64,000 bases of DNA from Nemertoderma westbladi (Eukaryota > Animalia > Xenacoelomorpha), in the NCBI GenBank assembly GCA_032718475.1, contig JAUCBJ010006791.1:11939-75938 (forward strand). Reading direction: 5' to 3'. A model generated the notes under the pieces. The model was not told the DNA's origin. It saw only the letters and a list, made by a program, of their open reading frames with translations, and did no database searches. The position numbers and the translations under genes are program-made. This document shows positions 1-64,000 of the stretch, in pieces; position 1 is the stretch's first letter, and each line of letters begins with the position of its first letter.

Positions 1-240
1 TGTAGGATAACACTGATCTGTTCCAAATTCGTCAATAGGTTCCAGGACCTAAATCAGAGTGAACAAATCGCTTACATAGAACGCAAACGGGATCAGATTA
101 GTGTGGATTACCACAGAATTAATGCAGCTTTATCAGCTCTGCTAGCACCGTTAAGGGGCTTTCGTTCCACACCCAATCTATTGGACCCAGTAGTAGATCC
201 ACCTCTTTCCCATAATAGTAAGAGATCCCATAATACTCGG

Positions 241-2673
241 ATGTCTGATGAATCACTTCCGATTGAAACGCTTCAGCTCATGTTCGATGCTGAGGAGACG
301 GTAAGAAAGGCCGAGGAAGAGGAACTTGAGGCTGAGGAGGCTAGAACGTTTAAGTCTGCTAGGTTAGAAAAAATGAGAAAGCAACTAGACATAACTAAGA
401 GAAGAGCCATAGCAAAGGCTAGGTTAGAAAAGTGTACTAGTGAATCTGAAAGTGAAATAGAGATAACCAGGAAGAAGACAACTCCTAGTAAGTCTAGAAA
501 TAGTGTTTATCGACGTCCTATCACACATGTAGATAAACCACCTGTTACAAGAGTAGAACAACAGCAAACTACCAGCCATACCGAATCTACACCTAAGCTG
601 AATTTAAAGACTATGGTAACTAGCTGTAATTTATTTCATGTTACTAGTTCTAACACTGTCACCAACACCTATTCATCCAGCGTTAATCCTACTGTTACAG
701 TTCATGCTCCCTCTTTTTTTATATCGGAAATATCTAATAACCGATCAGTAACGAGTAATGATCAAGTGTCCTATAGAATTGCAACATCATTATCTTCTAT
801 AGACACTACTTGTGTCAGAAGTAAGACTGGGCATATTAGTAGCGTTGTGACTTTCAAAGATACTACTTCAAGACCCACTATGTGTCCACTTGTAACACAG
901 CCACACTTCTCACCTACCTCCACTACATCTATGTATATCCCATTATTCACAACTAATGCTACCCAATATCATAATGTAAGTAGTGCAGGATATACAAAAA
1001 CACACTACGAGTTCGACCCTCACGCATCAGTTTTTCAGCCAAGGGCCAACTCCACTGCATACCACACCATCAGTAATTATGATACACATAATAATTATAC
1101 ACTCTCCGATGAAATGGAGACGTTGCGATCAGAGATAGCTCAATTAAAGGACAGCATGGGCATATTAGCTAACTCTAGGAACCAACCCTACAAGGCAACT
1201 ACTCTTCCCATGAGAGATTTATGCCAAGGAGGACCGGAAACGCAGGTTTCCACACAGTTGATGGGTGGTACCTTTAAGGAACAAGCAGCCAAATTAATGG
1301 GTGAAGACTTGACAGGGGACCTTGAGTTTCGACCAACTTCGATTCTCAAAAGACCAGAGACTGTTGGAAACACCCCCTTACCTACTGTAGTAGAGGAGAC
1401 AACACTTGAAACCAACCGAAGTTTTGCCAGAGTCATGACTAGAATGGATGCCAAAGGCTCCATTGGTGATACTGCACGCAAATTCAATGGGGACCCCCTA
1501 CGATGGATTCCCTTTAAGCAAACAGTAAAGTCTAATCTGTATAACTCAAATTTACCAGAGGATGAATTGCTCCAACTCCTTATCAGGAGCCTCGAAGGAC
1601 CACCAAAAGAACTTGCAGAAAGTTACCTTGGAGTCAATGAACCATTTTCGCGCGCTTGGGTGGGACTCTGCCAGCGTTGGGGACGAGAATCTTCTATTGC
1701 CGCCAGTATGGTTCACCAACTTATGAAGACAGGGGCTGTGAATAACGGTGACTCGTTTGTAAGGTTCGCAGACAAGATTAGAACTGTATATCTCCAACTT
1801 GAGACCCTAGACCAGACTTGTCACTTAGACCATCCCATTGTAATTGGACAACTACAAGCACTATTACCGGGACCTGTAGGGACAAGATGGGACAAACAAA
1901 GAGTGCGTCAAGAGTTAAGGACTAACTCCCTTCCTAACATTAAAAAATTCCTGGAATTTCTTGATGAAGAATGCCAGATCACGCTGAGTGGACAGAGGCG
2001 AGAGCGTGAGTGTTTGCTCAGTTGTAAAACCAAAAGCACCCTACACCCATCAGTGACTCCATTGCAGCGTGCGAAAGTCAGGCAGACTCAATCCGATGCC
2101 GTAGATTTTGAGGAGGACTTTAAAGTCAATGACCAGTACGCGGAAGTTAACCACATTCGTGGAGCAACTAAGGTAGCTCCCCAAAAACGATCTGACCAGC
2201 CAGCGGTGACCAAGCCTGGTAATTCTAAGGTTAAAGATGGTCAGAAAGAAACTTTGCAATTAGTGTTGGAGGCCCTCACAACACTAAACACTGATGGGAC
2301 TACGGACAATAAACTCACCACCGGGTGTCACAAGTGTCACTCTACTGAACATAGGATTTCCAACTGTCCTACCTTTAGGAACCTTACTGTGATTGACAGA
2401 CGGGCATATGCAGCTACAAATAGGCTTTGTTACAACTGTTTAAGTGCAAATCATATGCGCAAAATGTGCCGTTCTGAGGGAAGGTGCAAGGTGTGTAAGA
2501 AATCCCATCACACTATTTTGCACTCTGAAACTGCACGAGCACAGGTTCATCACACAACATTGACAGCTGAGGAAACATCGACCAACAACTTACTACCAAA
2601 CAGCACATACGCTTCAGATGAGTATGAAGAGATTGACCAGGTAGATATTCTTCCTGACTCACAGGCTTTCTGA
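241..2673 (+). CDS. gag: BEL/Pao Gag (first ATG at 241; the ORF track starts at an upstream GTG)
   Basis: KFNGDPLRWIPF capsid-region motif; knuckles CHKCHSTEH..C, CYNCLSANH..C, CKVCKKSHH..H; ends at TGA 2671-2673. Confidence 0.9.
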   Translation: MSDESLPIETLQLMFDAEETVRKAEEEELEAEEARTFKSARLEKMRKQLDITKRRAIAKARLEKCTSESESEIEITRKKTTPSKSRNSVYRRPITHVDKPPVTRVEQQQTTSHTESTPKLNLKTMVTSCNLFHVTSSNTVTNTYSSSVNPTVTVHAPSFFISEISNNRSVTSNDQVSYRIATSLSSIDTTCVRSKTGHISSVVTFKDTTSRPTMCPLVTQPHFSPTSTTSMYIPLFTTNATQYHNVSSAGYTKTHYEFDPHASVFQPRANSTAYHTISNYDTHNNYTLSDEMETLRSEIAQLKDSMGILANSRNQPYKATTLPMRDLCQGGPETQVSTQLMGGTFKEQAAKLMGEDLTGDLEFRPTSILKRPETVGNTPLPTVVEETTLETNRSFARVMTRMDAKGSIGDTARKFNGDPLRWIPFKQTVKSNLYNSNLPEDELLQLLIRSLEGPPKELAESYLGVNEPFSRAWVGLCQRWGRESSIAASMVHQLMKTGAVNNGDSFVRFADKIRTVYLQLETLDQTCHLDHPIVIGQLQALLPGPVGTRWDKQRVRQELRTNSLPNIKKFLEFLDEECQITLSGQRRERECLLSCKTKSTLHPSVTPLQRAKVRQTQSDAVDFEEDFKVNDQYAEVNHIRGATKVAPQKRSDQPAVTKPGNSKVKDGQKETLQLVLEALTTLNTDGTTDNKLTTGCHKCHSTEHRISNCPTFRNLTVIDRRAYAATNRLCYNCLSANHMRKMCRSEGRCKVCKKSHHTILHSETARAQVHHTTLTAEETSTNNLLPNSTYASDEYEEIDQVDILPDSQAF

Positions 2674-2724
2674 CTAGTCAGCACCAGACGCACGAATTCC
2701 GAGAGAACCCCAAACTCGGAATTC
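2671..2724 (+). promoter_or_regulatory. Candidate stop-codon readthrough cassette (UGA-CUAG plus downstream hairpin)
   Basis: TGA CTAG at 2671-2677; GAATTCCGAG (2694-2703) is the exact reverse complement of CTCGGAATTC (2715-2724), with an 11-nt loop. Confidence 0.65.
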
Positions 2725-5700
2725 CAAGTTATACAAGTAAAGCTTGTAGGTGACAAGGGTGAATTGAATGTGAATGCACTAATTGACTCAGGTAGTTCTG
2801 CAACATTTGTGGACAAGGACCTAGCAGATAGACTTTTTATTGAGAAAAAACCAACAGACTTAAACATGTCAGGTGTAATGAAATCCTGGACGTCCCGGAT
2901 ACACACAACCAAGTCTTATGGTTCTATACAGTCATTGAGTTCATCCTACTGCGCTAAACACGTGAAGTTCATTAGTATAACTGACTTTACAGGTGGACAA
3001 CCATTACCGTACAATTGGATTACTGATCCATTTCTTACAAAACAGTCGATACCGCAATACACTACACAAATACCGGGTATTTCTGTACTTATTGGACAAA
3101 ATGTTCCCGAGGCATTTCATGTTCTAGAACGAGTACCAGAATTTCCTTTACCACTCCATCCGTATGCAGTGCACACCAAGCTCGGTTGGTACTGTACTCG
3201 CCCTTCACAACAGACTTTAAAAGAGAGACAAATTCAGATTGAAGATTGTGACTATGATCAAGATCATATGACTTTCAGAACAACACTGAAATGTACTGAC
3301 CAGAATGATTATGAGACCATTAGAATGTGTACTACTCTAGATAGACATACTGAGAATATCCATAAGCTAATAGACAATTTGAAATGTGATCCGCGCAATT
3401 CTACGGAAGTTAGAGATCTACTTTACCAAAAGTTAGATCAGGATCTCAAGCTAACCCTTGCAACATTACGGTGGTTAGATATTGACCATGCTGAAACTAA
3501 TGCCAATGACTTATCTCTATCTGCAGAGGAACAACGGGCGATAGACATACAGACATCGACTGTACAACATCTCACTGATGGACACTACAGGATTGGATTA
3601 CTTTGGCGGGATGACAATCCTTCATTGATCAACAATAGACCACTAGCAGATAAACGGGCAGCACTGCTGTCTAGGAAACTACTAAATAACTCTACATTAC
3701 GTGAACAATACGAGACTCAGATGAATAAATATTTAGACTGTGGTTTCGCGGAATTAGTTCCTGAAGACAAACTGAATATAGCTGGGGATTTAGAATATTA
3801 TATGCCCCATCATGGTGTACCAAAGCCCAACAAACCCGAAGAAATCCGTGTTGTGTTTGACTGTGCCGCAATGTGGATGGGACACTCCTTAAACAGCTAC
3901 CTTTTACCCGGACCAAACCTGTTACAATCGTTGGTGGGAATACTATTGAGATTCCGACAGTTTGATGTAGCTGTTGTGTCTGACATTGAAGGGATGTTTT
4001 TACAGGTTAAAACGCTGCTCAGTGACAGACAAAGTCTGAGGTTTCTGTGGTGGCCCAATGGCGAATATAATCTCCCAGCACAGATATACTGGATGAACAT
4101 ACAAGCGTTTGGTATTATCTGCAGTCCATCAAATGCTTGTTCAGTTTTGAGACAGACTGCAACTGACCATGATCACCTATATGATGCAATTGTCACTAAG
4201 ACCATAAAGAACGATATATATATGGATGACTGTTTATTTTCTGTAATGAACGAAGCTATTGCCATAAAGCTTGCACATGATGTCTCAGACTGCCTTGCAA
4301 AGGGAGGTTTTAAACTGCGCAAGTTTAAAAGTAACTCTAAGAAAGTGCTACAATCCTTTGATATGGATACTAGAGACAACAGCACCATCGACTTAGATAC
4401 TGACCCACTGCCCATTACTAAAACACTGGGACTACGCTGGAATCCCCAACATGACTATTTGTTTTTTAAAGTTACTCCCAAGAATGATGATAGGCGGACA
4501 AAACGGATATGCCTAAGCATTTTAAGCTCGGTCTATGACCCATTAAATTTCATTAGCCCAGTTATATTCCAAGCAAGGGTATTGATGAAAGACATGTGGA
4601 CTGCCGATGTGGATTGGGATGACGAGATTCCAGATCATATTAGGGACAAGTGGGTACTATGGGAAGAACAATTACCAGACATAGAGAGAATTCAAATACC
4701 ACGTACATATTTTCCCTCATTACATCTAGATGAACAGCTAGAACTACATACATTCTGTGACGCTAGTAATTTAGGTATGGGAACTGTATCATACTTAAGA
4801 AGACCCTTAACTAACTCCGAGGCGCTGTATGAAGTATCTTACATATTTAGTAAATGCAAGACTCTTCCACTTTCTTCATATTTAACTGTACCGAGAGCAG
4901 AATTGCAGGCTGCTGTAATGGCAGTAGATACAGCGAGATTAGTAAAAACACAATTATCACTGGCAATTAAGGAATACTATTGGACCGATGCAGCATTAGT
5001 GCTAGAATACCTCACTAATTCACATACAGCCTTTAAAGTATTTGTAGCTAATCGAAAGTCCAAGATACTTAGTTATTCCAAAGTAGACCAATGGCATTAC
5101 TGTCCTGGAGATGTAAACCCGGCCGACATCGCCTCAAGAGGTGCTAGTCCCTCAGAATTACTTAATACACCATGTTGGCACAACGGCCCTGACTTCTTAA
5201 AAACACACAGTAGCTGTTGGAATTTACAGAAAGTCCCAAAGGTAAACAAAACGGACTTAGAGGTCACTGTGACTAAAGCGACTAAGTCTAAACTACTAAG
5301 TAACATCAAACATGATGTAACAGCTAGTCAGATTCAAACCGAACCCCCATTTTTAACAACTGACACTAGCACATTAACACCTAATATAAATAATGGGGTA
5401 TCTCCTATCATATACAGAGCCAGACAGTACTACTCGTCTTGGAAACGATATGTATCTGCTATTAATATGCTAAAAACATATTATTATATATTGATAGGAA
5501 GGAATTGCACCCACGGGATGTATTCACAAACTGAAACTCAGTTACTCAGACTTACTCAAGTTCTAGAAAATCCAGACAGATATAATTCATTTGTGACAAA
5601 TCCTGCTAAGTGTGACAGCGATAAGTTTTCTACTTTCATGAAAAACGGACTCTTGCGAGTTGGAGGAAAGATAGAACATGCACCTGTTAGCATAGACCAG

Positions 5701-6915
5701 AAACACCCTATAATAATTACAGATTATAACACCCAGAAACAGTTAATTCTAGACACCCATATTGATCTTATGCATGCTGGTCGAGAGCACATGCTATCTG
5801 CCCTTAAACAGAAATATTATCTGGTTCATCCACGTAGAGCCTTAACCGACGTAGTTAGGGAATGTATACCATGTCGCAAGCGGTTAGCACAACCTTTGAA
5901 ACAACTTGAAGGACAGCTCCCACTTGAGAGATTGGACTATTTCGAACCCCCTTTTTCATACACGGGGGTTGATTTATTTGGGCCTATAGTAGTTAAGCGT
6001 GCCCGCAGCACAATTAAGAGATGGACAATCATATTTACATGCCTTACAATTAGAGCAGTACATTTAGACTTGGTCACTGACTTATCTATGAATGCATTTC
6101 TGCTAGCCCTTAGACGCTTTATAGCCAGACGTGGTTCTATTAAGGTAATACGCAGTGACAACGGCACGAATTTTGTTGCCGCAAGTAAAGAGATATCAAA
6201 AACAATTGAGGACTGGAATACACATGATGTAGAAAAGTTGTTGACTCCAGTTTCCCTCGTTTGGAAGTTCAACACACCTCTAAGCCCATGGTATGGCGGT
6301 TCATGGGAAAGATTAATAAGGAACGTTAAGTCTGCACTTTTTCACGCTATTCCCTCCAACGTTTACTTAACTGATGACACGTTAAGGACATTCTTGGCGG
6401 AAGTGGAATGCGTAATAAACAGCCGCCCCCTAACAAGACTCTCAGCAGACCCTAAGTCTACCGACACTTTAACTCCTGCACACTTTCTATTTCAGCGACC
6501 AGCTGTTATATTGCCAATATCGGATGTAGACCCACGAGACTACATAACTAACAAAACCTGGAAACTCATGCAGTACTTAACATCTGTCTTCCGAGATTAC
6601 TGGGTTAAGCAATATCTTCCTTCCATTGCACTCCGTACAAAATGGTTTTCACAGCACCGTAACCTACAGACGGGAGACTTAGTTTTATTGGTAGATGAAG
6701 CTAGTTCTCGTAAAACTTGGTTGACTGCCCTTGTACTAAAAACATTTCCAGGTAAAGACGGATTAGTTAGAACTGTGCAGATAAAAACTAGTAGCGGGCA
6801 GATTCTCTTGCGACCCATACAACGACTGTGTCTTTTAGAAATGGATCGGGAATCTTCCCACGATTACGGTCAAATCCCAGGTGATGTTAACTTCGTTCAT
6901 AACTTTAAATTATAG
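2674..6915 (+). CDS. pol: BEL/Pao Pol (PR-RT-RH-IN), in frame with gag directly after the stop
   Basis: Frame is open from 2674 (LVSTRRTNSERTPNSEFQVIQVKLVGDKGELNVNALIDSGS) to TAG 6913-6915; no ATG lies between the stop and the protease DSG; catalytic motifs intact. Confidence 0.92.
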   Translation, partial: LVSTRRTNSERTPNSEFQVIQVKLVGDKGELNVNALIDSGSSATFVDKDLADRLFIEKKPTDLNMSGVMKSWTSRIHTTKSYGSIQSLSSSYCAKHVKFISITDFTGGQPLPYNWITDPFLTKQSIPQYTTQIPGISVLIGQNVPEAFHVLERVPEFPLPLHPYAVHTKLGWYCTRPSQQTLKERQIQIEDCDYDQDHMTFRTTLKCTDQNDYETIRMCTTLDRHTENIHKLIDNLKCDPRNSTEVRDLLYQKLDQDLKLTLATLRWLDIDHAETNANDLSLSAEEQRAIDIQTSTVQHLTDGHYRIGLLWRDDNPSLINNRPLADKRAALLSRKLLNNSTLREQYETQMNKYLDCGFAELVPEDKLNIAGDLEYYMPHHGVPKPNKPEEIRVVFDCAAMWMGHSLNSYLLPGPNLLQSLVGILLRFRQFDVAVVSDIEGMFLQVKTLLSDRQSLRFLWWPNGEYNLPAQIYWMNIQAFGIICSPSNACSVLRQTATDHDHLYDAIVTKTIKNDIYMDDCLFSVMNEAIAIKLAHDVSDCLAKGGFKLRKFKSNSKKVLQSFDMDTRDNSTIDLDTDPLPITKTLGLRWNPQHDYLFFKVTPKNDDRRTKRICLSILSSVYDPLNFISPVIFQARVLMKDMWTADVDWDDEIPDHIRDKWVLWEEQLPDIERIQIPRTYFPSLHLDEQLELHTFCDASNLGMGTVSYLRRPLTNSEALYEVSYIFSKCKTLPLSSYLTVPRAELQAAVMAVDTARLVKTQLSLAIKEYYWTDAALVLEYLTNSHTAFKVFVANRKSKILSYSKVDQWHYCPGDVNPADIASRGASPSELLNTPCWHNGPDFLKTHSSCWNLQKVPKVNKTDLEVTVTKATKSKLLSNIKHDVTASQIQTEPPFLTTDTSTLTPNINNGVSPIIYRARQYYSSWKRYVSAINMLKTYYYILIGRNCTHGMYSQTETQLLRLTQVLENPDRYNSFVTNPAKCDSDKFSTFMKNGLLRVGGKIEHAPVSIDQKHPIIITDYNTQKQLILDTHIDLMHAGREHMLSALKQKYYLVHPRRALTDVVRECIPCRKRLAQPLKQLEGQLPLERLDYFEPPFSYTGVDLFGPIVVKRARSTIKRWTIIFTCLTIRAVHLDLVTDLSMNAFLLALRRFIARRGSIKVIRSDNGTNFVAASKEISKTIEDWNTHDVEKLLTPVSLVWKFNTPLSPWYGGSWERLIRNVKSALFHAIPSNVYLTDDTLRTFLAEVECVINSRPLTRLSADPKSTDTLTPAHFLFQRPAVILPISDVDPRDYITNKTWKLMQYLTSVFRDYWVKQYLPSIALRTKWFSQHRNLQTGDLVLLVDEASSRKTWLTALVLKTFPGKDGLVRTVQIKTSSGQILLRPIQRLCLLEMDRESSHDYGQIPGDVNFVHNFKL

Positions 6916-8091
6916 TTACAGCAAAAACATTTCCATTTGCTGTAACTATGACTATAGAGACGAAAGACGACATAAATACAACAATATTGTATTATATAGA
7001 ACAGTAAAATACATTTATCAATTGTAATAAGTATTACATAGTGACCGGATGATTTAGCAGTTCGTATATAATACATTAGATAGTACTGTATACTGTATAT
7101 ATACATAAGAGTACATATGGTATAAATAATTGAAATTATTGAAAGCAATTAAAATAATCAAAATCAACACTTTCATAGTGCTACTAATATAAATCCTTTC
7201 ATATTTATATTTATAAAAATTTTATGCGCTGTATAAAAACGACATTATTTGCAACAAATCGGTTGGAAGAGAGATAACGCATAATTTAGTATTGAAAATT
7301 ATTATAAGTTCTTCCCCTCAGAAAGAAAAAGAAAATGAAAACCCAAATTGTACTAATAAATATTAACAATTTGGATATTATTCTAATCTTTGCGATAATC
7401 TGACTACCGTAAAAAGTACTTGAGTGAGTAGAGTACTACTTGGTTAACGGTAGTAGGCAATAGAAGGAGAAGGCTATTGGGCTTCATCAATCTATGTTTG
7501 GAACTCGAAATCACAAGGGTTTCATCACAAGTGATAACCGAAAGACGCTCTTCCGGCTATCGGCTGGCTGGCCTATAGCACCATTGCAATTGCAAACCGA
7601 TACACGGTACCGTATCGGTACATCGCTTTCCGTTTTAACGACTAACCCTACAACTAATCTGAATCCTGTAATTCATGTTATTAAACTCAATGCGATATGC
7701 CTCGCCTTACCTGTCGGGCGTAAAGAACTGCGTCGATAACATGGAGCCGGAGCGAATAACCTACGTCCAGATAGTAAATGGAAACAAAAGTCGATTGAAA
7801 ATTAATTGCTGGTCGACGCATTCAAATATGTAATCGTTCGTAATTATGTAATTGGCGTTGATCTAATACGGTCGTTGAAGAGTTGAGAAATGTATCTCCT
7901 TGAGCGTAATCGATCCTGAGGTGGGATGATATCGTCATCAATGAGACTTTCATCCGAAAAATGGAGTTTTTATTGTTATCAATTACCGGTATATATTTTT
8001 TATTGAGACTTACTTACTGCGCCCTGATTTGATTCTCTATGTTTAAGTTTAAAGAATTATTATTGTTAATTATTTAAACTAGACGGGAGTT

Positions 8092-9039
8092 TGTTGGCGC
8101 CGCTGCGCGTGGCAATAATCATCCCGACCTTTTCTTTATTGTGCTATATTCATATTTATTTGTAAACGAAGAATTATATTTCTGTTCAGTTGAGTTTTAT
8201 GCTTATTTAATATGTGATTCGATTTATCGAGAGATTGTAACTATACTAATAGGTTTATTGAATTATTGTAAGTTGATTATTGGTGGTGTGAGTTAATTAA
8301 GTTGTGCATTGTATTGTAATCTCAATCTAGAAGTATGTTAGGTGGCATATCTGTCCGCATAATGGAAAGCCAATAAATGCCGTGGCTATACTGTATTATT
8401 GACCTAACAATTATCGCCAACTATATAGATTAATTAGTAGTTTTTTAAATACAATAGTCATCTCGACAGCTGGGCTCATTATTCTGAAATACAGCGGGAG
8501 AGACTTTTGTATTCTTACGGCTAGAATAGGGCAATCCTATATATTGAATATTGAATATTAGTAATTAGTAATTAGTATATATATCGTTTACGGTCTAAAT
8601 TTGAATATAATATTATAAATTATATAAATAATAACGACCTGAGGAACTCTGAATAAATTTCCTTCCAAGTAAAAACTGTCATCTTTCGACTATCTCCTTC
8701 CTTCTAAAGCCGTCTACATTACGTAGGCTGCCGGGACCCTTGTAGACTCTGTCTCTTCTCTGTACTAGAGGGAGCAGGTTATTGCAGGAATTCTCTCTGA
8801 GGGAGAGATTGATTGTTAGCAATTTTGAGAATAGGAATGCGTTATTCGCCAGTACGAAACCTAAGTCTTGATATTAGTACAAGCACCTTTTCAATTTCTC
8901 AAACTCCCCATCGATTTGTTGCCATACTGACTGTATATTAGAGCCACTGCATAAACCCTGGCGGTAATAGTTTATTGTCCAGGTCAGCCGATAGGATTAT
9001 TGTTAGTAGCACTGCGACTACATTAATCGCGCAGCAACA
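8092..9039 (+). repeat. Putative 3' LTR of BEL #1 (948 bp)
   Basis: Preceded by purine tract AGACGGGAG; begins TGTTG and ends CAACA (inverted termini); contains AATAAA; satellite starts abruptly at 9040. No partner LTR in the window to confirm. Confidence 0.65.
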
Positions 9040-13255: not shown

Positions 13256-14488
13256 TGTTCGCGCTTTCAGACCTTTGGCAGTTTAACCCACCAAATTAAG
13301 ATGTCTTCTAGATATTAAATCTGTTTTTAGTCTATGACAAGTATTTGATTCACTACACTAGTCGAAACCAATCTGTGCGCGATCATTCACCCGCTGGATA
13401 TTCCCGGGAGATTGGGTTCGACGGTTTAATTTTATTGCTATGTAAGCCTAATGTATTATTCGACTGACAGTATTATATAATCTCTGACAATATTATTCAC
13501 CTTCGGGAATATTAACAGTTCCTTTAGGACGTGGCGCTTTATCTATATAAACAGAGTTATGACTTAAACTACTCACAACGATATGGCTTAATTATAATTC
13601 ACATATATGGCGCATTCTTTAGGAATTGCTTCTTTAACAGACTCACTCATACACAATGCTGCACAATACTGCACACTAATCTGCCAATCTTCACTGATTT
13701 TAGTCACATATAAAAGGAACACAGGCTGACTCATGTAGGGTCTATCAAATAACATTAGATTCACTTCAAACCACTTTAACATAAGTCACAATCGTTATTG
13801 GTAACCTTTCTCTCTTACCTTCGGTATATCAAGAATATTGGGTTTCGGGGTGATTTATCGTTATTCCAAATATAATAATTCATCAACCATATTATGAAGA
13901 ACTGACGGTAAATAGCAGTATAAAATAACTACTGAACACTGATTGTTATGAGTTTGCAATGTTTCAGCAGTCAGGATGTATGATAAGTTATCAGTAGTCA
14001 TTAGATGCGTTAAAGGATATATGCCCTTTATAATTAAACCTACTAGTGTACGACTAAAAAGCAGTACAGCACAAAATACTTCCAAGCCGTTCTTTCTTTG
14101 GCTCAAGACTGAATGTAAACACTGCACATAGGCATTGCGTCATTTCTCGGAAATTTTCTGTACAAGGAGCCACAAAAACGCTCTCATTGGCTGACTGAAC
14201 TGAGAGACGCCGTAGAACAAAGGAAATCAACACGTATGAATGTCAGCTGTTAACCGTAGTCATAGTAACTACTGTTCAAGAGTAGCTATCACCCTTTTGC
14301 GTCACGAATTGCCATAGAATCATAAAATATGCCTTTCACAGTACACATACAGAGGAAATAGGTCTTAGATCCTCTAAAAACACAGATACAGCAATAATAC
14401 GGTCTCTTACACTTATTAAATCAACTACGGAGTATTTTAATGTAAAAGATAATAAAAATAACGGGGCAATTCAGCAAAGGCTTTTACA
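13256..14488 (-). repeat. 3' LTR of BEL #2
   Basis: Near-identical to 25041-26279 (scattered substitutions and small indels); sense-strand AATAAA at 13431-13436. Confidence 0.95.
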
Positions 14489-15388
14489 CCGCTCCCAGAA
14501 AATGGGATTTTCAGTCTATAAAATATAAAAATCACAGTTTCTAAAACACAAAGATACTCTAAACAGTTAGTCTTTCTTGCGCGGACGGCGTTTACGCAGT
14601 TTCTTGAGGCTAGCAAGAGTCCTTTTCTCTTTGGGGGGAGCCACTTTACTAGGAGGGCCATAACTCCTGGGTGAAGGGTGCAATATGATTGCATTAAAAG
14701 GTTTGGGTTTACGGTCGGTGTCTCGTCCATTTCGATATGCTTCTCCTCGAGCTGATTTTCCTCCGCTTGTCATGGGATACGTTCGTCCAAAACTCTCGCA
14801 GAGAATAGGGTTTTCTAAGCTTGATATCTTCTTTGAGATTCGAGGTTTCCCAATCGAACTGAGATAAGGCCAATTCGTTTATCGATTGGACTTACTGTTA
14901 TAACTTACGTTTATCTGAACAAACGCAGGTTTCCTTTTTGATCTTTATAGAATAGCGTTTAACTCGTTTCGTACAACGCTCTCCTTCACCTTGATGAAGG
15001 GTTGTATCGCGTTAAACGGGACGACCATACGGTTGGATAGTGATATTAGGTGTCTGCGTCATAATCCAGCTAGGTAAGATGGGCGGCTAGCTAGAAATCA
15101 CTGTCGGAGTGTTACCGATTAATTGTTAGGGTAGCACTAGATCTTGAACAGTGAATACCGTCCGCGAGGATCCGCGACACCACCAGGATCGCAGGTCTGA
15201 GGTCCAACTAAGAAATGAGGAGGTTTGACCGAGTATTCCGGGACTCTGATCGTAGGTTTACTCTAGGATCGTTAGAGCCGAGTGAGCATAGGTGATACGT
15301 CAAACAAGTTTCGCTCGAAACTCCAGTAAATATAACGAACACAACTGTGTTTAACACAACGTTTCCGTGGATGTTTATGTCTTTCCGT

Positions 15389-17735: not shown

Positions 17736-20700
17736 TTACGTTATGGAGTCCCTAGATGTTTGAAGGATTAGGGAGGTGGTCGTGGGAAGAGAATCTTGCC
17801 TTCCACAGTTTCCGGAGAGTCCTCCATTCCCTTCCGATAAACACAAACGACCGACTGGGTGATTGAGTCGCTGCATCCTGAATACAATTCCAGGTTTCCT
17901 CTTCGTCCTGGAATAGTGACGATAGAAACATCGCTCAAAGTATATGACGGCGTCACAAAGCCGATTCCAGGAGCTATAGTGGTCCGTCGCTCTCTGCAGG
18001 AGAGGTGAGAGTCCCTGCGAGACGTCTGATGTTCCAGAGCTCCAATCGCTCTCTCTGATCTTCATGAAGGATCCACTCGCGGTGGGGAGGCCCAGATCCA
18101 CGGCGTCGTCCCTGGCAACATGTAATACCGACAGATCTATCCCGGGTTCAAATAACTCCGATCCACCCGTCCGGGTTTCAGGTTCGACTTTCTCCGCTCC
18201 CTTGGCTGGTCTAATCTCAGTCGGAGTAAGATGGGGAGGCCATTCATTCTCCTTACTCAGGAAGTCGGGTTCACCTAACCGGTCTATAGTATCTGTCAGT
18301 TCTTGAGGAGTTGCTCCTCTGGAAGCGATGTCCGTTGGATTAAACTTCTTGGGGCAATATCTCCATTGATCTACATTGGAGCTAAGATTGTCATTATCTG
18401 AGGAGTGTGGTGTTCCCTCAGTTGGGTCGTCTCCCTCACTAGTATCATCTTCCCATTCACTCACCTGGCAGACGCGATCTTGAAGCAGTCTTTCCCTGAG
18501 CGTTCTACGGGAAGGTCCAGTAAGGTACCAACCTACTCTAGTTCTTACCGCATAGGTCTGTAGTGGCTGCGGTTGAGCAGGCCGTTTCTCTAATGTCTCC
18601 AGCGCCTCATGCGCGTTTTGGCCGATGAGTATTTGCACTCCAGGATAATCAGTCTGGAATCGAGGTATGTTAAGATGTTGGATGCTCTCATCCTCGTCCC
18701 AATTATAAAGGTCTGCTTGAGTAGTAGCGAAGTTCTTTATAGCCACCATTTTCACTGACCTGATGCTATGTTCTCCTAGTTCGTCCTGGGGGGTGGACAA
18801 CTCACCTATATAATAGTCGGCAGCTACAGTAGAATTCCAAACCTGCATGATCCCTGACATGTTGAGCTTAGTTTGGAACTTGGGTTGTCCAGCAAATATA
18901 TCTTCGGCTAGCTCTTTATCGATGAATGTTCCTGTGCTGCCGGAGTCCAGGAGGGCGTTCACTACATAACTCCGTTTAGGTCCGTGCACCCTTACCTGCA
19001 CCACAGGAAACTCTCGGATTCCTATATTGGAAGTTGGCGCTTTCCAAGATGGTTGTTGATCGGAAGTAGTTAAGGTAAGGTCGCTGTCTGTGTCTTTCTC
19101 ATGTACGAGTGCTCGATACACTGCGGTGGTGTTTATTAGGTAACAGGATTCGTTTTGGTCGGAGAACTCGTCCGTATAGAATCCTTCCATCTCAGATTGA
19201 TCAGTGTCGTTCACATCACTGAATTGGACATGTAGTTCGGACTCACTTACCTGACTCGGGCTGTTTCGTTCGAATTCCGTGTGCAACAAGATATGATGAT
19301 TTGCGCCGCACTTTGCACACCTTGCGTCGGAGTTACAGGTTCGCCGTTGGTGTCCTCGTCTGAGGCAATTATAACACAACCGCTTATCCCACATGACTTC
19401 ACGTCTATCCTCGAGTGATTTCCTCAGGAATTTATCACACGCATTTAAACGGTGGGGCCCGTCGCACAGCACACATTTCGGCTTGATGTTACTTACTTTA
19501 ACCTGTGCTATGTGGTGCACACTTGTTCTTTCCTCGGGCTTTCTCACCTGAATTCTTTTAGGAGACGTAGGAAGGGTTTTTTGTACCGGTTCCCTTCTGT
19601 CATTGGGTCGAGACTCGGATTTACTTACCTGATCTTTAGGCATTTTATTGACATAATAAGATCTGTCAGTGTCTTTCCCGCTGTCCTCTCCTTGAGAAGT
19701 TTGGCTTTCACCGTCGTCGGTATAACATACTGGTGTTACCCTTCTCCTAGAAACGGGTTTCTCACTTACCTTGTTTTCCAATGTCTTCTCTCTGGACTGC
19801 CTTAGGAGCTGTAATTTCACTTCTCTATCTAAGAATGACATGAGATCAGTCATGGTAGGGTCTCGTCGTTGTTGTTCCATCATATATAACACTTTCTTAT
19901 CCCAGCGTGTACCTACTCCACCCTTGGGCAAAGTAGATGCTAAGGCTCCTACAACCATAGAATTCTGGTATTCATGAGACTTACCTAACCAATCTAGTTG
20001 TCTACAGATCTCCTGAATCTCATCGGAAAACTCTATAATCCCGCTGCTAAGAAACTTTCGGGGCGCCATTAATTTCGCATATAAATACCTAGCTATGTTA
20101 GTCCTATTACCATACCTGATGTTTAGTGTATCCCAAACTTGTCTTAATCCATCTGGATGTCCAATAAATTTTAACGCCATTGACTTGGGAGATCCTTCCA
20201 AGCACTCGATGAGGAATCTAAGTTTCTCTCCATTAGATAGTACAGAGTTCTGTATGTTATCTTTGTAATATTCATTAAAAGGTAACCATTTCATCTCATC
20301 TCCATTGAACTTGACGATCTCTCCCACCTTCACCGCTTGCCGGGCTTCGGTTCTAGCCATTTGACGCGTAAAACTTTCTTGGGCCATCGTGTTATTTAAT
20401 ATCGAGTTATCGGTATATAAATTTCTCGGATTATGATCAGTTCTATAGGGAATATCATTATCAACAGGTCTATAATTACCCTTAATAGGGTTCACTATAG
20501 GAGTTTCTACTTCGCTAGCAGTATAAATGCGTGTAGGCTCCACACCTTGCGCATGAGATACTTCAGACCTAACGGGTTGACACATTGTTACAGAGGGTGG
20601 TGGTATACCCTTTTGGGTATTTACTAATTTATCGCGTTCAAGCGCGATACTTTGCTGCACTTCTTGCAACTCTAGCCTACTTTCCCTTACTGTGCCCTTG

Positions 20701-22745
20701 AATTGCTGGACAGTCTCCTGCATCTGCCCGAGCAGGATATCCATCCCCCGCCGTCTCTCGTCCACCCATTCGACCGCCGAAGCGGGAGTCGCCAACGTTG
20801 TAGCGGGCGGACGAGGGACAACGGGCGACAAATTGTGAATATTTCGCTCGGGGTCCAGGACCTGAACTGTCTCCTGGGCAGTTCTGCGGGGCACAGGTAG
20901 CTTAGTGCTATGCAGAGGGAATTTAGAGGTAGCTTCAGGGAGCACAGGTGTGTCTATCACCGAAGGGGTGATTTCAAGAACAGGCCTAATTATTTCAGGC
21001 TCATCTACTATAGTAGGGAGTCTTTCTATTTTAATTATTTGGTCTGTGGGCTCTGTACTACCTAAGTTGGTGTTATTTAGTTGCCTTCTAACAGCTGGAG
21101 GCAAATCAGGCAATTTCTGACGGTGGAATGTTCTTTTACGTCTGCTTAGACGAGATCTATTTCCTTTGCCTTCAGTATCGGTGGTATCGCCTTCCTCCGA
21201 TGATGTATATCCCTGTCTTTTGGGAGTAGATCGATCCATCATCCGCATATTGCTAGCCGTTAACTGTTTATTTATGCAGTCTTGATTCTCCTGAATGTTT
21301 TCCAATTCTAACTGGGTGGTTTCTTCAGTCGCTCTCCGTTCTGCTTCTGCCACTGCCTCTGCCGCCTTTCTTTCAGCTGCTGCTTCTGCCAAGGTCGCCT
21401 TTGCTTCTGCCGCTGCCTCTGCCGCCCTTGCCTCTGCCGCTGCCTCTGCCGCCCTTGCCTCTGCCGCTGCCTCTGCCGCCTTTGCCTCTGCCGCTGCCGC
21501 TTTTGCCCCTGCTGCTGCCTCTGCCGCTGCCACTTTTCTTTCTGCTTCTGCAGCTACCACTGCTGCTTTCTTTCTGTCTTCTATGCGTTTTTTCTTTACT
21601 TGTTCTTCCCTTTCTCTAGCGATGCGGAGTTGTTCATCGAATTTAGCTTGGTTCGCCGCTAACCTATCCACATCAATCGCATCTAACACAAGTTTGGCTC
21701 CTTCGCTATTAGGGCTAAGTCCCTCTAGCCTTCTCCTCAACTCTTCATCTCCCACAAAACGCTGATAGTCTGACAGATAGATATCAATGGCATCCTTCTT
21801 ATGCGGTTTCTCTGCCGTCGCTTCACTTTCCACTTGGGAAAAAGTAGCGTCTGTTGATTCTCCATGGGTTGAGCGCTCCTCCAACTGAGCCTTCCACTGA
21901 GCTGCTCCTTGAACCTGGCGACTCACCCGTTGAAACCAAGTCTTTACGGCAACTTGCAACGACGTGTCTTGTCTTCTTTTAGAAGCCTCCTCAAAGGCGG
22001 ATAAGATTAGCCTAATTCGTAGAACTCTTTCTCTAACTTGATAAAGCAGCGATCCCTGCTCTTGAGGTCCTTGAGGTTGTTTAAACAGTTGTCTTTCTAC
22101 TCGCTCCATAGAGCTGAAGAATCCCTGGGCGTATCCGGCTGCGGACCTCTTCCATACAGCTGGATCGATGGTTTCCTTGGCTACTCCCATCCGGTGTATG
22201 TCTTCCCAGGCAGCTTCTGATAAATCAAACGGGAGTCCGGGTCCGGGGAAGTTCCATTGCGACTCGACAATAGACTTCAGTTCTTCACTAGTGTATCCCG
22301 CGTAACTATCTCTAGTTGACCGTTGACTTCTCGCCCAATCGATCTGGTGTTCTTCCACCGCGATCAATAACCCAGCGAGCACGGCTGCAGGAAGGATGAG
22401 AAGGGGATCCGTATAAACCGCATCCGTCATCTCTGCTCCGCTCTCGGGTGTCAGCTCTACAGTATCCTCACTACTGGAGCTGCTGGGCCGCTGAGGAATA
22501 AGTTCTTGACTAGTGGGTTGTTGCTGTTCCGCTGCCTTTTGGTCCCGCTTGACCTGAGCTCGAGTGCCTATGATAGACCTACGATGTTGGACTAGCCTAG
22601 GTTCTGTTATTACTACTGGAGGGATGACCTTCCTCACAGTGGGAGGTGAACTGGATTTACGACCAGACGGTTGTACGTCTCTATCTGAGTCGCAGATAGT
22701 TACATCTAATAAACTGTCTGACAGGTTCTGCTTAGTATCAGACAT
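17736..22745 (-). CDS. gag: Gag-protease polyprotein fused in frame to the RNase H tail/connection region; RT and integrase absent
   Basis: KFNGDEMKWLPF, three knuckles, LLDSGSTGTF, then a jump to VDQWRYCP..NPTDIASRG and SPLLQRA..YSSW, which match the post-RNase H region of element #1; no YxDD, no DDE. Confidence 0.92.
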   Translation of the reverse strand: MSDTKQNLSDSLLDVTICDSDRDVQPSGRKSSSPPTVRKVIPPVVITEPRLVQHRRSIIGTRAQVKRDQKAAEQQQPTSQELIPQRPSSSSSEDTVELTPESGAEMTDAVYTDPLLILPAAVLAGLLIAVEEHQIDWARSQRSTRDSYAGYTSEELKSIVESQWNFPGPGLPFDLSEAAWEDIHRMGVAKETIDPAVWKRSAAGYAQGFFSSMERVERQLFKQPQGPQEQGSLLYQVRERVLRIRLILSAFEEASKRRQDTSLQVAVKTWFQRVSRQVQGAAQWKAQLEERSTHGESTDATFSQVESEATAEKPHKKDAIDIYLSDYQRFVGDEELRRRLEGLSPNSEGAKLVLDAIDVDRLAANQAKFDEQLRIAREREEQVKKKRIEDRKKAAVVAAEAERKVAAAEAAAGAKAAAAEAKAAEAAAEARAAEAAAEARAAEAAAEAKATLAEAAAERKAAEAVAEAERRATEETTQLELENIQENQDCINKQLTASNMRMMDRSTPKRQGYTSSEEGDTTDTEGKGNRSRLSRRKRTFHRQKLPDLPPAVRRQLNNTNLGSTEPTDQIIKIERLPTIVDEPEIIRPVLEITPSVIDTPVLPEATSKFPLHSTKLPVPRRTAQETVQVLDPERNIHNLSPVVPRPPATTLATPASAVEWVDERRRGMDILLGQMQETVQQFKGTVRESRLELQEVQQSIALERDKLVNTQKGIPPPSVTMCQPVRSEVSHAQGVEPTRIYTASEVETPIVNPIKGNYRPVDNDIPYRTDHNPRNLYTDNSILNNTMAQESFTRQMARTEARQAVKVGEIVKFNGDEMKWLPFNEYYKDNIQNSVLSNGEKLRFLIECLEGSPKSMALKFIGHPDGLRQVWDTLNIRYGNRTNIARYLYAKLMAPRKFLSSGIIEFSDEIQEICRQLDWLGKSHEYQNSMVVGALASTLPKGGVGTRWDKKVLYMMEQQRRDPTMTDLMSFLDREVKLQLLRQSREKTLENKVSEKPVSRRRVTPVCYTDDGESQTSQGEDSGKDTDRSYYVNKMPKDQVSKSESRPNDRREPVQKTLPTSPKRIQVRKPEERTSVHHIAQVKVSNIKPKCVLCDGPHRLNACDKFLRKSLEDRREVMWDKRLCYNCLRRGHQRRTCNSDARCAKCGANHHILLHTEFERNSPSQVSESELHVQFSDVNDTDQSEMEGFYTDEFSDQNESCYLINTTAVYRALVHEKDTDSDLTLTTSDQQPSWKAPTSNIGIREFPVVQVRVHGPKRSYVVNALLDSGSTGTFIDKELAEDIFAGQPKFQTKLNMSGIMQVWNSTVAADYYIGELSTPQDELGEHSIRSVKMVAIKNFATTQADLYNWDEDESIQHLNIPRFQTDYPGVQILIGQNAHEALETLEKRPAQPQPLQTYAVRTRVGWYLTGPSRRTLRERLLQDRVCQVSEWEDDTSEGDDPTEGTPHSSDNDNLSSNVDQWRYCPKKFNPTDIASRGATPQELTDTIDRLGEPDFLSKENEWPPHLTPTEIRPAKGAEKVEPETRTGGSELFEPGIDLSVLHVARDDAVDLGLPTASGSFMKIRESDWSSGTSDVSQGLSPLLQRATDHYSSWNRLCDAVIYFERCFYRHYSRTKRKPGIVFRMQRLNHPVGRLCLSEGNGGLSGNCGRQDSLPTTTSLILQTSRDSIT

Positions 22746-22829
22746 GACTAGGTATGTACAGTTGAATGCCTACTGCTATATTACAGTCTAAGCAAGTCTA
22801 GTAACTCAGTATGAACTGCTAGCCTAGTA

Positions 22830-23245: not shown

Positions 23246-24199
23246 CAATTATTTTAAATAATTGAATTTCTGAATTTTAGGGTTACTTGGTTACTTTACT
23301 TACTTTATTACCGTTATTTGAGCAGTAATCCAACTGATATTGAGACCTAATGGTTGTATGGTAGGCCTACGATTTATAAATCGTTAGATTTGATTTATAA
23401 TATATATACCCGTTTTAGTGGGTTTTGTCAATGTTTGAAATAAATGTTATTATTTCTGGGGGTAATCACTACACAAAGCGGTGCGCTTTCAATGAAGTGT
23501 TACTTATGAGACACTAAAACAAATAATACTAATTTACCTAAGTTACTTAATACTACAAATTACGTACAATTCGGGTTGAGATTACAATCTCTAAATAAAC
23601 ACAAAAATTTACAAAAACACAAAATACGAATTTTTAGGGTAATTTTACAAGAAGTCTACAAACCAGCCTAACAAAGGGTTAGAAAACTGGTTATTACAAC
23701 GGACAGGGTACTACGGTATTTGAAATAATAAGTAGTAGTAAATACACTGCGTTGTCTAGATAGGAAAATACCACCGCCTGACGACCTATAGCCGTATCGC
23801 TATAGGTTCTACGTTATGTATCACGGAGTGTTCCTACCTAGAAGTTAATAGAGCTAATCGAATGTGCCTATCAACCACTTTACAACACAGATATAATGTC
23901 TACAATAATTACTTCCGGAAAGCACTGTACACTAAACCCTAAATTAGGTACGAGTACTTGTACAACAAATAATCAGTAGTTAAATATACTTGAACAGCTA
24001 AAAGAACCACGGCATCTGCTGGAGTGACCGATGCACAAAATCACCAGTCTTTACCTACGCCGAGCAGCCCGTGTAGTACCGGGGTTAATTTAACTATAGC
24101 GGTATGTATAACAAACACAATTACTGTAGGAACAAACTTAGGGAATGAATGTTGCGGATAATCGCATAAACTCTGAATAATAAATATTACGCTACGCGT

Positions 24200-24750
24200 A
24201 CAAACTACTCAAACAAAATACAGACCGAACACTGACAGACTACTATCAAGCCTAAACAAACTACGGTATATGCAGACTCCGAAATGATTAGGGAGTATGC
24301 GCTCTAACCCAGTAGTGCGACTTATTCTTTAGTTGGGGGATTACCTTACAGCGTTCGCTGCCCCTACTGCCTAATCGTACTTAATCGGACAGATGATCTA
24401 CACACGCGGCAATCCGTTCAGACCTAATAACAGCCAGACAACTATCCAGCCTACAAATTATCTAAATAAAATTATACGCTACCCGTACAGACTTACACAA
24501 ACAAAGTACAGACTAAACGATGGCAGACCACTCTCAAGCCTAAATAAACCACAGGACATGCAGACTCCGAAATGATTAGGGAGTATGCGCTCTAACCCAG
24601 TAGTGCGACTTATTCTTTAGTTGGGGGATTACCTTACAGCGTTCGCTGCCCCTACTGCCTAATCGTACTTAATCGGACAAGTGCTCTACACACACTGCAA
24701 TTCGTTCGGACCTAACAGCAATCAGACAACAGCTCAGCCTACAAATTGTC
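24200..24750 (-). repeat. 288-bp tandem duplication in the BEL #2 leader with an identical 122-bp structured core
   Basis: 24270-24391 equals 24558-24679 exactly; the rest of each unit is clearly diverged. Confidence 0.9.
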
Positions 24751-25040
24751 TGTCCAATCTGATCAGGTTTACACGCCTTCTGTTCAATACTGGCCTACAA
24801 ACAAATAAAACTTGACAGAAATAAGTAAACCATATAAAGGAATAAGGGGTGATCAATCCCTAATCCCTTAAACAGCCTACCGGTATACAACAATCAAATC
24901 GAATAATACTAGTGTACTTATACGGCAGTACCGGTTAGACAGTTAGGCCTACTGACCTACAGGTGTACCGTTCAGGTTTACCGGTTGACCGGTACTTTCA
25001 ACTTTATTGCTTACTGCAACAAAGAAGCTATATCCTTTAA

Positions 25041-26279
25041 TGTTCGCGCTTTCAGACCTTTGGCAGTTTAACCCACCAAATTAAGATGTCTTCTAGATAT
25101 TAAATCGCTTTTTAGTCTATGACAAGTATTTGATTCACTACACTAGTCGAAACCAATCCGTGCGCGACCATTCACCCGCTGGATATTCCCGGGAGATTGG
25201 GTTCGACGGTTTAATTTTGTTGCTATGTAAGCCTAATGTATTATTCGACTGACAGTATTATATAATCTCTGACAATATTATTCACCTTCGGTAATATTAA
25301 CAGTTCCTTTAGGACGTGGCGCTTTATCTATATAAACAGAGTTATGACTTAAACTACTCACAACGATATGGCTTAATTATAATTCACATATATGGCGCAT
25401 TCTTTAGGAATGCTTCTTTAACAGACTCACTCATACACAATGCTGCACAATACTGCACACTAATCTGCCGATCTTCACTGATTTTAGTCACATATAAAAG
25501 GAACACAGACTGACTCATGTAGGGTCTATCAAATAACATTAGATTCACTTCAAACCACTTTAACATAAGTCACAATCGTTTATCTGTAACCTTTCTCTCT
25601 TACCTTCGGTATATCAAGAATATTGGGTTTCGGGGTTATTTCTCGTTATTCCAAATATAATAATTCATCAACCATATTATGAAGAACTGACGGTAAATAG
25701 CAGTATAAAACAACAATGAAAACACTGATTGTTATGAGTTTGCAATGTTTCAGCAGTCAGTATGTATGATCAGTTAGCAGTGATTCCATGAGTCAGGTAG
25801 TTAAAGGATATATGCCCTTTATAATTAAACCTACTAGTGTAAGACTAAAAAACAGTAAAGCACATAATACTTCCAAGCCGTTCTTTCTTTGGCTCAGGAC
25901 TGAATGTAAACACTGCACATAGGCATTGCGTCATTTCTCGGAAATTTTCTGTACAAGGAGCCACAAAAACGCTCTAATTGGCTGACTGAACTGAGAGACG
26001 CCGTAGAACAAAGGAAATCAACACGTATGAATGTCAGCTGTTAACCGTAGTCATAGTAACTACTGTTCAAGAGTAGCTATCACCCCTTTGCGTCACGAAT
26101 TGCCATAGAATCATAAAATATGCCTTTCACAGTACACATACGGAGGAAATAGGTCTTAGATCCTCTAAAAACACCGATACAGCAATAATACGGTCTCTTA
26201 CACTTATTAAATCAACTACAGAGTATTTTAATGTAAAAGATAATAAAAATAACGGGGCAATTCAGCAAAGGCTTTTACA
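25041..26279 (-). repeat. 5' LTR of BEL #2
   Basis: Copy of 13256-14488; sense-strand CCAAT (~25977-25981) and TATAAA (25818-25823). Confidence 0.95.
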
Positions 26280-26280
26280 C

Positions 26281-29200
26281 ATACCTAATGGTTATAAACT
26301 ACAACACATGCCAAGAACACATACGATTGGAGGTGGTGTGGGATGTGTATACAATACCACGGTGAATTTGAACTGGTAGCCGGGACGAGTCAGTGAAGTA
26401 TAAATCATTCGAATATATTGAACTAACTATGTTATACATGGGGATATTATTCAGGTTCGTTATAATCTACCGTACCTGCCTCTCAAAGGAAAATGGACTA
26501 AATATTAATATTTTTAATGGAGAATTCTGTGACATGATGCAGCGACTAGTTGTGTCCACTGGACGATTGATTATACTGGGTGATTTTAACTTCCATGTTG
26601 ACGATAAATGTGATAGAGATGCTACGGCGTTTTTGGATCTGATTGGCTGTTTTGGATTAGAACAGTTAATAAATGAACCGACTCACTCGAGAGGTCACAC
26701 ACTGGACTTAGTATTGACGCTCACGGACGACGATATGAAAGTTAAAGACATATTTGTGAGTGATATTGGCTTGTCGGACCATTACCTTGTAAAGTTTAAT
26801 ATCGACTTGGTGAAGCCCAAATGTCCGATAGCCAATATTTCATATAGGAAAACAAAGTCTATTAACATAATGAACTTAATTGGTGATATCGAAAACACAG
26901 CCCTTATCAAAAATCCCAGCGATGACATCGAGGAATTGGTGAAACAATATACGGAGACCCTATCAAATGTACTTAACAAGCATGCCCCACTAGTACACAG
27001 TACCAAGGTTAAACGACCCTCAGCACAATGGTACAATGATACAATTTACATTGGAGAAAAAGAAAAGGCGACAACTTGAACGTCGATTCAGGAAATCCAA
27101 ACTGAAAGTTGATCAACTTGCGTACTGGGAGCAGTGTCAGGTAGTGTCAAATGCACTCAACCACGCAAAGCAACAATACTATAAGGGAATAATAGTGTCG
27201 AATAAGGGAGATCAAAAGACACTATTCACTGTTCTCAATAAATTCTTATATCAAGAACGGAGGGCCAATCTCCCGAATTACGACAACGAGGAAGAGCTGG
27301 CTAACAGATTTGCAACATATTTCGACCAGAAGATATGCATAATTCGTGATGAATTGATGATGAATGTAAATTCTCAGACAAGGGGGTTAACATGTACAGA
27401 TACTATAACCGGCGCGGCTCATATCGGTGTCGGAGCTGCTGGAGCGGTTCACCCCAGTGTCGGAGCGGCTGGGGCGGTTCACCCCGGTGTCGGAGCTGCT
27501 GGAGCGGTTCACCCCGGTGTCGGAGCGGTTCACCCCAGTGTCGGAGCTGCTGGAGCGGTTCACCCCGGTGTCGGAGCTGCCGGAGCAGTTCACCCCGGTG
27601 TCGGAGCGGTTTACCCGGGTGTCGGAGCTGCTGGAGCAGTTCACCCCGGTGTCGGAGCGGTTTACCCGGGTGTCGGAGCTGCTGGAGTGGTTCAACCCGG
27701 TGTCGGAGCGGCTGGGGCGGTTCACCCCGGTGTCGGAGCTGCTGGAGCGGTTCACCCCGGTGTCGGAGCGGTTCACCCCAGTGTCGGAGCTGCTGGAGCG
27801 GTTCACCCCGGTGTCGGAGCGGCTGGGGCGGTTCACCCCGGTGTCGGAGCTGCTGGAGCGGTTCACCCCGGTGTCGGATGCGGTTCACCCCAGTGTCGGA
27901 GCTGCTGGAGCGGTTCACCCCGGTGTCGGAGCTGCCGGAGCAGTTCACCCCGGTGTCGGAGCGGTTTACCCGGGTGTCGGAGCTGCTGGAGCAGTTCACC
28001 CCGGTGTCGGAGCGGTTTACCCGGGTGTCGGAGCTGCTGGAGTGGTTCAACCCGGTGTCGGAGCGGCTGGGGCGGTTCACCCCGGTGTCGGAGCTGCTGG
28101 AGCGGTTCACCCCGGTGTCGGAGCGGTTCACCCCAGTGTCGGAGCTGCTGGAGCGGTTCACCCCGGTGTCGGAGCTGCCTGAGCAGTTCACCCCGGTGTC
28201 GGAGCGGTTTACCCGGGTGTCGGAACTGCTGGAGCGGTTCACCCCGGTGTCGGAGCTGCTGGAGCGGTTCACTCCGGTATCGGAACTGCTGGAGCGGTTC
28301 ACCCCAGTGTCGGAGCTGTCGGAGCGGTTCACCCCGGTGTCGGAGCTGTCGGAGCGGTTCACCCCAGTGTTGGAGCGGCTGGAGCGGTTCACCCCGGTGT
28401 CAGAGCGGCTGGAGTGGTTCACCCCGGTGTCGGAGCTGCTGGAGCGGTTCACCCCGGTATCGGAGCTGCTGGAGCGGTTCACCCCAGCGTCGGAGCTGCT
28501 GGAGCGGTTCACCCCGGTGTCGGAGCTGCTGGAGCGGTTCACCCCGATGTCGGAGCTGTCGGAGCGGTTCACCCCGGAGTCGGAGCTGTCGGAGTGGTTA
28601 ACCCTGGTATCAGAGCAGCCCGAGTGGTTCAACCCGGTGTCGGAGCGGCTGGAGCGGTTCACCCTGGTGTCGGAGCGGTTTACCCGGGTATCGGAACTGC
28701 TGGAGCGGTTCACCCCGGTGTCGGAGCGGCTGGAGCGGTTCACCCCGGTGTCGGAGCTGCTGGAGCGGTTCACCCCAATGTCGGAGCTGTCGGAGCGGTT
28801 CACCCCGGAGTCGGAGCTGTCGGAGTGGTTAACCCTGGTATCGGAGCAGCCCGAGTGGTTCAACCCGGTGTTGGAGCTGCTGGAGCAGTTCACCCCGGTG
28901 TCGGAGCTGCTGGAGCGGTTCACCCCGGTGTCAGAGCTGCCGGAGCGGTTCACCCCGGTGTCGGAGATGCTGGAGCGGTTCACCCCGGTGTTGGAGCTGC
29001 TGGAGCAGTTCACCCCTGTGTCGGAGCTGCTGGAGCGGTTCATCCTGGCGTCGCAGGGAGAAGACTCAGCAAATTCGATGAGATAACGGCGGAGGAGGCA
29101 GACAAATTAATACGCGATTCAAGGACAACATCAAGTCCGCGGGATCCGCTACCTACATGGTTGCTGGAAACTTTCAATCGCACCGCTACTTCTTGTTATA

Positions 29201-31141: not shown

Positions 31142-31143
<2 letters not shown>

Positions 31144-63955: not shown

Positions 63956-64000
63956 TGTGACAATCCCATAGTATACTGTACGTTAATTGAAAGACTATTT
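63956..64000 (+). repeat. Start of a BEL #4-family LTR in inverted orientation
   Basis: Exact reverse complement of 62883-62927, beginning at the terminal TG. Confidence 0.88.

Follow-up and report, generated by a model that had tools for sequence, protein, structure and literature searches.

Predicted self-priming in an animal BEL/Pao retrotransposon lineage, with primer sequences split by predicted LTR introns in most relatives

The window analyzed here, the whole stretch of 64,000 nucleotides of Nemertoderma westbladi DNA (contig JAUCBJ010006791.1, positions 11,939 to 75,938), contains two oppositely oriented BEL/Pao elements, with a 48-bp satellite (9040-13251; 87.5 copies, 96% matches) between their 3' LTRs. 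The features of the two elements are listed below by position in the window.

1..9039, plus strand: element 1, a related BEL/Pao element with gag, pol and 3' LTR (about 6886-9039); its 5' end lies outside the window
13256..14488, minus strand: 3' LTR of element 2; the core recurs at 14021-14010
14489..14500, minus strand: purine-rich tract before the 3' LTR of element 2
17736..22769, minus strand: gag with DUF1759 and CCHC knuckles, then protease, joined to a post-RNase H fragment
25019..25028, minus strand: partner of the second helix
25029..25040, minus strand: post-LTR site, the predicted primer-binding site; no TGG
25041..26279, minus strand: 5' LTR of element 2, 1239 bp, TG...CA ends
25210..25221, minus strand: poly(A)-signal region of the 5' LTR, ATTAAA
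25327..25603, minus strand: candidate LTR intron, with donor GAAG/GTAAGA at 25603; acceptor uncertain, 25327 being one candidate
25716..25800, minus strand: hypervariable segment, from the 3' end of the core
25801..25812, minus strand: 12-nt core, the predicted self-primer, complementary to the post-LTR site
25814..25822, minus strand: arm of the second helix, 5' of the core; TATAAA (25823-25818) overlaps it

Read on the minus strand, the LTR of element 2 runs TGTAAAAG...GAACA, and its two copies (26279-25041 and 14488-13256) are 96.6% identical. The ORF at 22769-17736 encodes gag, which matches PF03564 (E 1e-12), and a protease 42% identical to that of element 1, and then jumps to the post-RNase H fragment. 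Neither reverse transcriptase (RT) nor RNase H nor integrase (Pao PF05380, DUF5641) was found in element 2, an absence that the earlier note on this DNA had missed; the element would therefore need a helper. Given the missing pol domains, element 2 is only a defective derivative of the BEL/Pao lineage. It retains the DUF1759 gag, CCHC knuckles, protease, TG...CA LTRs and purine tract of that lineage, and membership in Ty3/gypsy (Tf1/sushi) fails because its Pfam matches are of BEL/Pao type. As the earlier note had also overlooked, no target-site duplication was found at element 2, and its flanks differ, with a LINE on one side and the 48-bp satellite on the other; the two LTRs may thus stem from different copies. 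In the 3' LTR, as in most of the contig depth, the poly(A) signal reads AATAAA. Single contigs from public runs reach a depth in the thousands at this LTR, and the family is therefore multi-copy. The 3.2-kb part of the element at 14489-17736 is without integrase and holds a 264-amino-acid ORF (15389-16183) with no Pfam match. An Ala/Glu-rich tandem repeat is present in gag, and the 2.3-kb leader contains duplications, including one of 288 bp (21396-21531, 22864-23244 and 24188-24747 for these repeats). An internally repeated motif occupies 25620-25170 of the LTR, its copies terminating at a GT donor-like site (25603, 25285, 25175), and may explain part of the long R-U5 of element 2.

Element 1 has a full pol in PR-RT-RH-IN order. 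Its gag and pol share one frame, with a single TGA between them (2671-2673) that is possibly a readthrough site or a mutation. A quick gag-protease tree of 28 rows places element 1 as the sister of element 2 (SH-aLRT 100), both on long branches: the RT of element 1 is at most 42% identical to that of any of 89 loci, and element 2 shows about 22-28% identity to its relatives in gag-protease. Named protein relatives come from corals, echinoderms, fish, abalone and a priapulid. The check on the 5' end of element 1 that the earlier note had suggested gave no usable sequence: five contigs came from one of four runs, and the only long continuation has a depth of 28, versus 400-680 on the LTR, and is flank-like. 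Elsewhere in the window, the LINE (26280-30646) has endonuclease-like sequence and an RT (29111-30646), is interrupted by a 30-bp repeat array (27425-29042), and is followed by a 51-bp satellite (31142-38877). Additional BEL/Pao integrase remnants lie on the minus strand at 39393-40465 and 63129-63998, and fragments of a 7TM receptor (48249-48899) and of an RT (50092-50877) were also seen.

The sequence directly after the 5' LTR of element 2, at offset 0, is TTAAAGGATATA (25040-25029). The earlier note had described it as a site without TGG that has an exact 12-nt complement inside the LTR, and both were found just where it had placed them. The complement, TATATCCTTTAA, occurs on the minus strand of the whole window only at 25812-25801 and 14021-14010, and in only 2 of 3000 approximately dinucleotide-preserving shuffles of the LTR did a complement of at least 12 nt arise at offsets 0-5. 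The complementarity between the post-LTR site and the LTR core is confirmed as real; the identity of the 12-mer between LTRs that are 96.6% identical is by itself weak evidence. When the two ends are folded together, a second helix of 9 bp forms (25822-25814 with 25028-25019), with one bulge per strand and two G-U pairs. The extension proposed earlier, with its bulge and G-U pairs, is thus present but slightly longer than the roughly 7 nt claimed. The TATAAA reported 5 nt upstream of the core is there, at 25823-25818, with most of the hexamer inside the second helix; no TATA-like motif was found about 30 nt upstream of the core in this LTR. The sharp divergence of the LTRs just 3' of the 12-mer also held: 12 of the 41 differences between the pair fall within 39 nt (25799-25761), starting 2 nt past the core, and contigs of other runs carry other sequence in place of about 25716-25800. 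Among the matches listed for contigs and public runs, no variants were seen in the core or the post-LTR site of this family. Rfam gave no matches on 24800-26300 at E up to 5, ARAGORN predicted no tRNAs over the whole window, and the 56 pattern matches in viral contigs included no relative, and the LTR/site junction had no match there.

The pairing was examined across related families, comprising 15 loci plus 78 drawn from the best 80 of at least 535 confirmed loci; the relatives that carry a prokaryotic assembly label probably represent host DNA. Independently of pairing, the point where two LTR copies diverge set the LTR end at 13 loci. In 12 of these 13 (11 clusters at 80% RT identity), a site 0-5 nt past the LTR has a perfect complement of 10-15 nt in the element's own LTR, while in a control of 178 cross-family pairs the complement never exceeded 9 nt. 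Shuffles equaled the observed value in 0-2 of 200 trials for the 12 loci and for the window element. Ten of the 12 complements exist only across a GT-AG junction and two are contiguous. The thirteenth locus, L081, did not pass the acceptor filter (6 nt); relaxing that filter gives 11 nt. A further 66 loci were scanned at all ACA ends, with 14 loci that had too little upstream sequence left out; 25 of the 66 score at least 11 (2 of them false), versus 102 of 4258 cross-cluster pairs. The 13-nt scan matches of L084 and L088 were rejected because they lay at the wrong LTR end, and L084 has 10 nt at its true end. Over both locus sets, 35 of 60 clusters reach 10 nt and 25 do not, many of the latter missing part of the LTR. 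The complement scan gave no convincing self-complement in the LTRs of L008, L012, L042 and L082; L008 and L012 are deep-branching loci and have no TGG site either. Rescans relaxed to any GT and any AG were left out of these counts, and among them L057 (13 nt) looks genuine. These relatives are the strongest evidence for self-priming, the window copy being defective and somewhat atypical.

Thirty-five positive rows were picked by hand, 26 with spliced and 9 with contiguous cores, the window element belonging to the latter. In every row, the window element included, the partner starts 0-5 nt past the LTR end and no TGG lies within 8 nt of that end. Of the 35 cores, 20 measure 11 nt and 27 end in AC, that of the window element being 12 nt long and ending in AA. 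The distance from core to LTR end is 760 nt in the window element versus 30-247 nt in its relatives, and LTR introns in the spliced rows measure 66-478 nt. A TATAAA 5 nt before the core is peculiar to the window element (0 of 34 other rows have one at such spacing), and the curated rows share no TATA position upstream of their cores. The second helix, located beyond an A/C-rich bulge, recurs in these families: over 34 rows it is more stable with an element's own partner than with those of others (-7.5 versus -5.6 kcal/mol; 0 of 10000 permutations). Tf1-like pairing of the region 3' of the core with the end of U5 was rejected, 6023 of 10000 permutations doing as well. Covariation among relatives, suggested earlier as a check, was found, with the pairing kept in different letters and in relatives without TGG. 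L004 and L005, which share 90% RT identity, differ at two core positions that have changed on both sides, and two-sided changes also distinguish L065 from L067 and L019 from L069.

One contig bears what reads as a trace of LTR splicing. On it, L053 has a 5' LTR that carries an acceptor and a 3' LTR in which the core is contiguous; the match between the two LTRs begins at the first base past the acceptor. In the sister locus L039 (73% RT identity), agreement with the L053 3' LTR extends to the final base ahead of the L039 donor. The L053 contig could join two family members; intron-bearing and exactly intron-less LTR forms both exist. The contiguous cores of L037, L038, L041 and L051 fall in one clade of a FastTree RT tree (89 of 93 loci). 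No intron-bearing sister of the window family was present among the relatives compared, and the window element is best read as an intron-less form. In a separate observation, the 3' LTR of L014 (4289-4678, 9900-10283 for its LTRs) lacks the opening bases of the core's exon-2 part, and its 5' LTR end departs from CA in comparison with its sister L025.

Folding of the leaders gave a core-pairing probability of at least 0.78 in 12 of 16 spliced leaders, and 2 of 7 contiguous leaders reached 0.9. The unspliced window leader gave 0.0 with the 5' LTR and 0.65 with the 3'-LTR variant. When trial GT-AG introns were removed from the window leader, 27 of 45 removals, those taking out about 25430-25353, raised the probability to 0.89-0.97, because this stretch holds a competing partner. 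In a public run that may be RNA, the LTR showed no GT-AG joint, a result that carries no weight. The modeled folds are a weak hint that the window family may keep a splicing gate, in which removal of a downstream LTR intron would remove the competing pairing.

Because a 12-nt stretch inside the LTR complements the post-LTR site, we consider it likely, by analogy with Tf1, that the family of element 2 primes reverse transcription with its own RNA. The earlier suggestion of tRNA-independent self-priming in a BEL lineage is upheld in part, the comparative test being what favors it. By the same analogy, a Pol II start would lie about 10 nt or more upstream of the core; the leader would fold back through the 11-12-bp core and the short second helix. 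RNase H acting in trans, from an intact element, would cut just 3' of the core, and the new 3'-OH would prime minus-strand DNA through U5 and R. Plus-strand synthesis would copy the primer back into the site, and the two would stay complementary. In most relatives the core would be built by host splicing of the 5' LTR. With strong-stop DNA predicted to end at the cut, each copy would take its intron from the unspliced 3' LTR, and sequence changes would cluster just 3' of the core, matching the LTRs of element 2; rare splicing of the 3' LTR would yield intron-less LTRs such as those in the window. The conserved second helix 5' of the core argues that the primer would not simply be the first 11 nt, and suggests that the RNA of element 2 extends 5' of the core. 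More broadly, and with somewhat less assurance, we favor the view that a wide animal BEL/Pao radiation primes with RNA spliced by the host spliceosome from two exons inside the 5' LTR, which would make replication splicing-gated; intron-less members, the window element among them, would have arisen by reverse transcription of a spliced 3' LTR, and the window family may keep the gate.

The TATAAA next to the core invites other readings. It might be a variant poly(A) signal, with the transcript of the window family ending at about 14010 and its 3' end pairing with the post-LTR site as primer. The hexamer stops 17 nt short of the core's 3' end, a usual spacing from signal to cleavage, the window core alone ends in AA, and a transcript boundary there would also explain the divergence from 25799. 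However, element 2 has an AATAAA/ATTAAA about 180 nt away from its LTR end, a poly(A) signal is found downstream of the core in 16 of 26 relatives, and, over the last 40 nt plus the core, 0 of 34 have one on its 5' side and 2 have it inside the core; moreover, intron-split cores could not use the 3' copy without loss of the intron in each cycle. Priming by the RNA 3' end therefore seems quite unlikely to us. The hexamer is also a perfect TATA box, the more conspicuous since nothing similar precedes the core at about 30 nt, and it might direct a start near 25793, downstream of the core. Another primer would then be used, and the pairing would either have a structural role (in packaging, dimerisation or control of translation) or be a relic. 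The failure of the unspliced window leader to fold the core fits such a role, but the partner consistently occupies the position required of a primer, no alternative primer site stands out, the hexamer shares sequence with a helix that is a lineage-wide feature, and TCAGT motifs, initiator-like by their consensus, occur upstream of the core at 25994, 25989 and 25903. We regard this reading as unlikely. A TATA-box start and a poly(A) end would both also predict a boundary near 25800.

The core seems to resemble half of an anticodon stem-loop for a UUU anticodon, and a host tRNA fragment, possibly mitochondrial, might prime in the manner of copia-type half tRNAs, with the LTR match secondary. 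Half-tRNA priming does exist in copia lineages (PMC6317226), but a fixed set of tRNAs would not produce dozens of unrelated post-LTR sequences, each matched by its own LTR, and this explanation is very improbable. Chance is harder still to credit. The 12-mer is AT-rich, in an AT-rich LTR, and was picked by the earlier reader out of a large window, and no covarying close relative of the window family was obtained, so that this family might be unrelated to the pattern in the relatives; against this stand the rarity of such matches in the shuffles, the offset of 0 from the LTR end, and a length class and two-helix layout that are the same as in the relatives. We give it almost no weight.

The self-priming preferred here has its closest known counterparts in Tf1, Tf2 and Tj1 (Tf1/sushi, Ty3/gypsy), which likewise have no tRNA site and in which an LTR segment of about 11 nt, aimed into U5, complements a site beside the 5' LTR (PMC7175516, PMC4600332, PMC5341516). 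In Tf1 the RNA's initial 11 bases pair with the site, and RNase H releases them (PMC7175516), and cDNA ends carry DNA copies of primer-site sequence (PMC11042837). The label "Tf1-like" applied to element 2 by the earlier note fits in geometry and in the length of about 11 nt. It does not fit in the second helix 5' of the core, which makes the BEL/Pao core probably not the first 11 nt, or in the LTR intron that splits the core in most relatives. Other differences are that BEL/Pao is another superfamily, that a spacer of 0-5 nt precedes its site, and that 3'-side pairing with U5, as in Tf1, was not detected in the BEL/Pao rows, where the self-primer is predicted from sequence. Among plant elements, Tcn1 (gypsy) and TAR/Houba/Osr-1 (copia) have also been assigned predicted self-primers, on the basis of an LTR complement of at least 10 nt to a site 0-5 nt past the LTR, an arrangement that element 2 shares; those complements are contiguous, and the accessible text mentions no splice-built primer (PMC6317226).

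Element 2 shares with the Belpaoviridae (Semotivirus) of the ICTV the TG...CA LTRs, purine tract and DUF1759 gag, and element 1 the PR-RT-RH-IN order (PMC8742986). The ICTV family is described as tRNA-primed, through an 18-nt site for tRNA-Arg or tRNA-Gly that is absent from element 2 and the 35 curated rows, and its replication as "poorly understood" (PMC8742986). A literature search, with most subscription papers and Repbase/GyDB outside its scope, found no report of self-priming or of a splice-built primer in BEL/Pao. The words "primer" and "tRNA" are absent from the accessible text of the Sailor description (PMC6238403), and "tRNA" or primer terms have no match in that of PMC554778 and PMC3118150.

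If self-priming is true of these elements, BEL/Pao would be the third LTR superfamily, beside gypsy and copia, with predicted or shown self-priming, and annotation tools that demand a tRNA site would miss such elements. Fragments from the 3' ends of tRNAs inhibit tRNA-primed elements, and self-primed BEL/Pao elements would be independent both of this inhibition and of tRNA supply. Were the primer built by splicing, retrotransposition would be coupled directly to host splicing and the introns in the LTRs would be accounted for, and each family gives an exact predicted splice junction and primer end.
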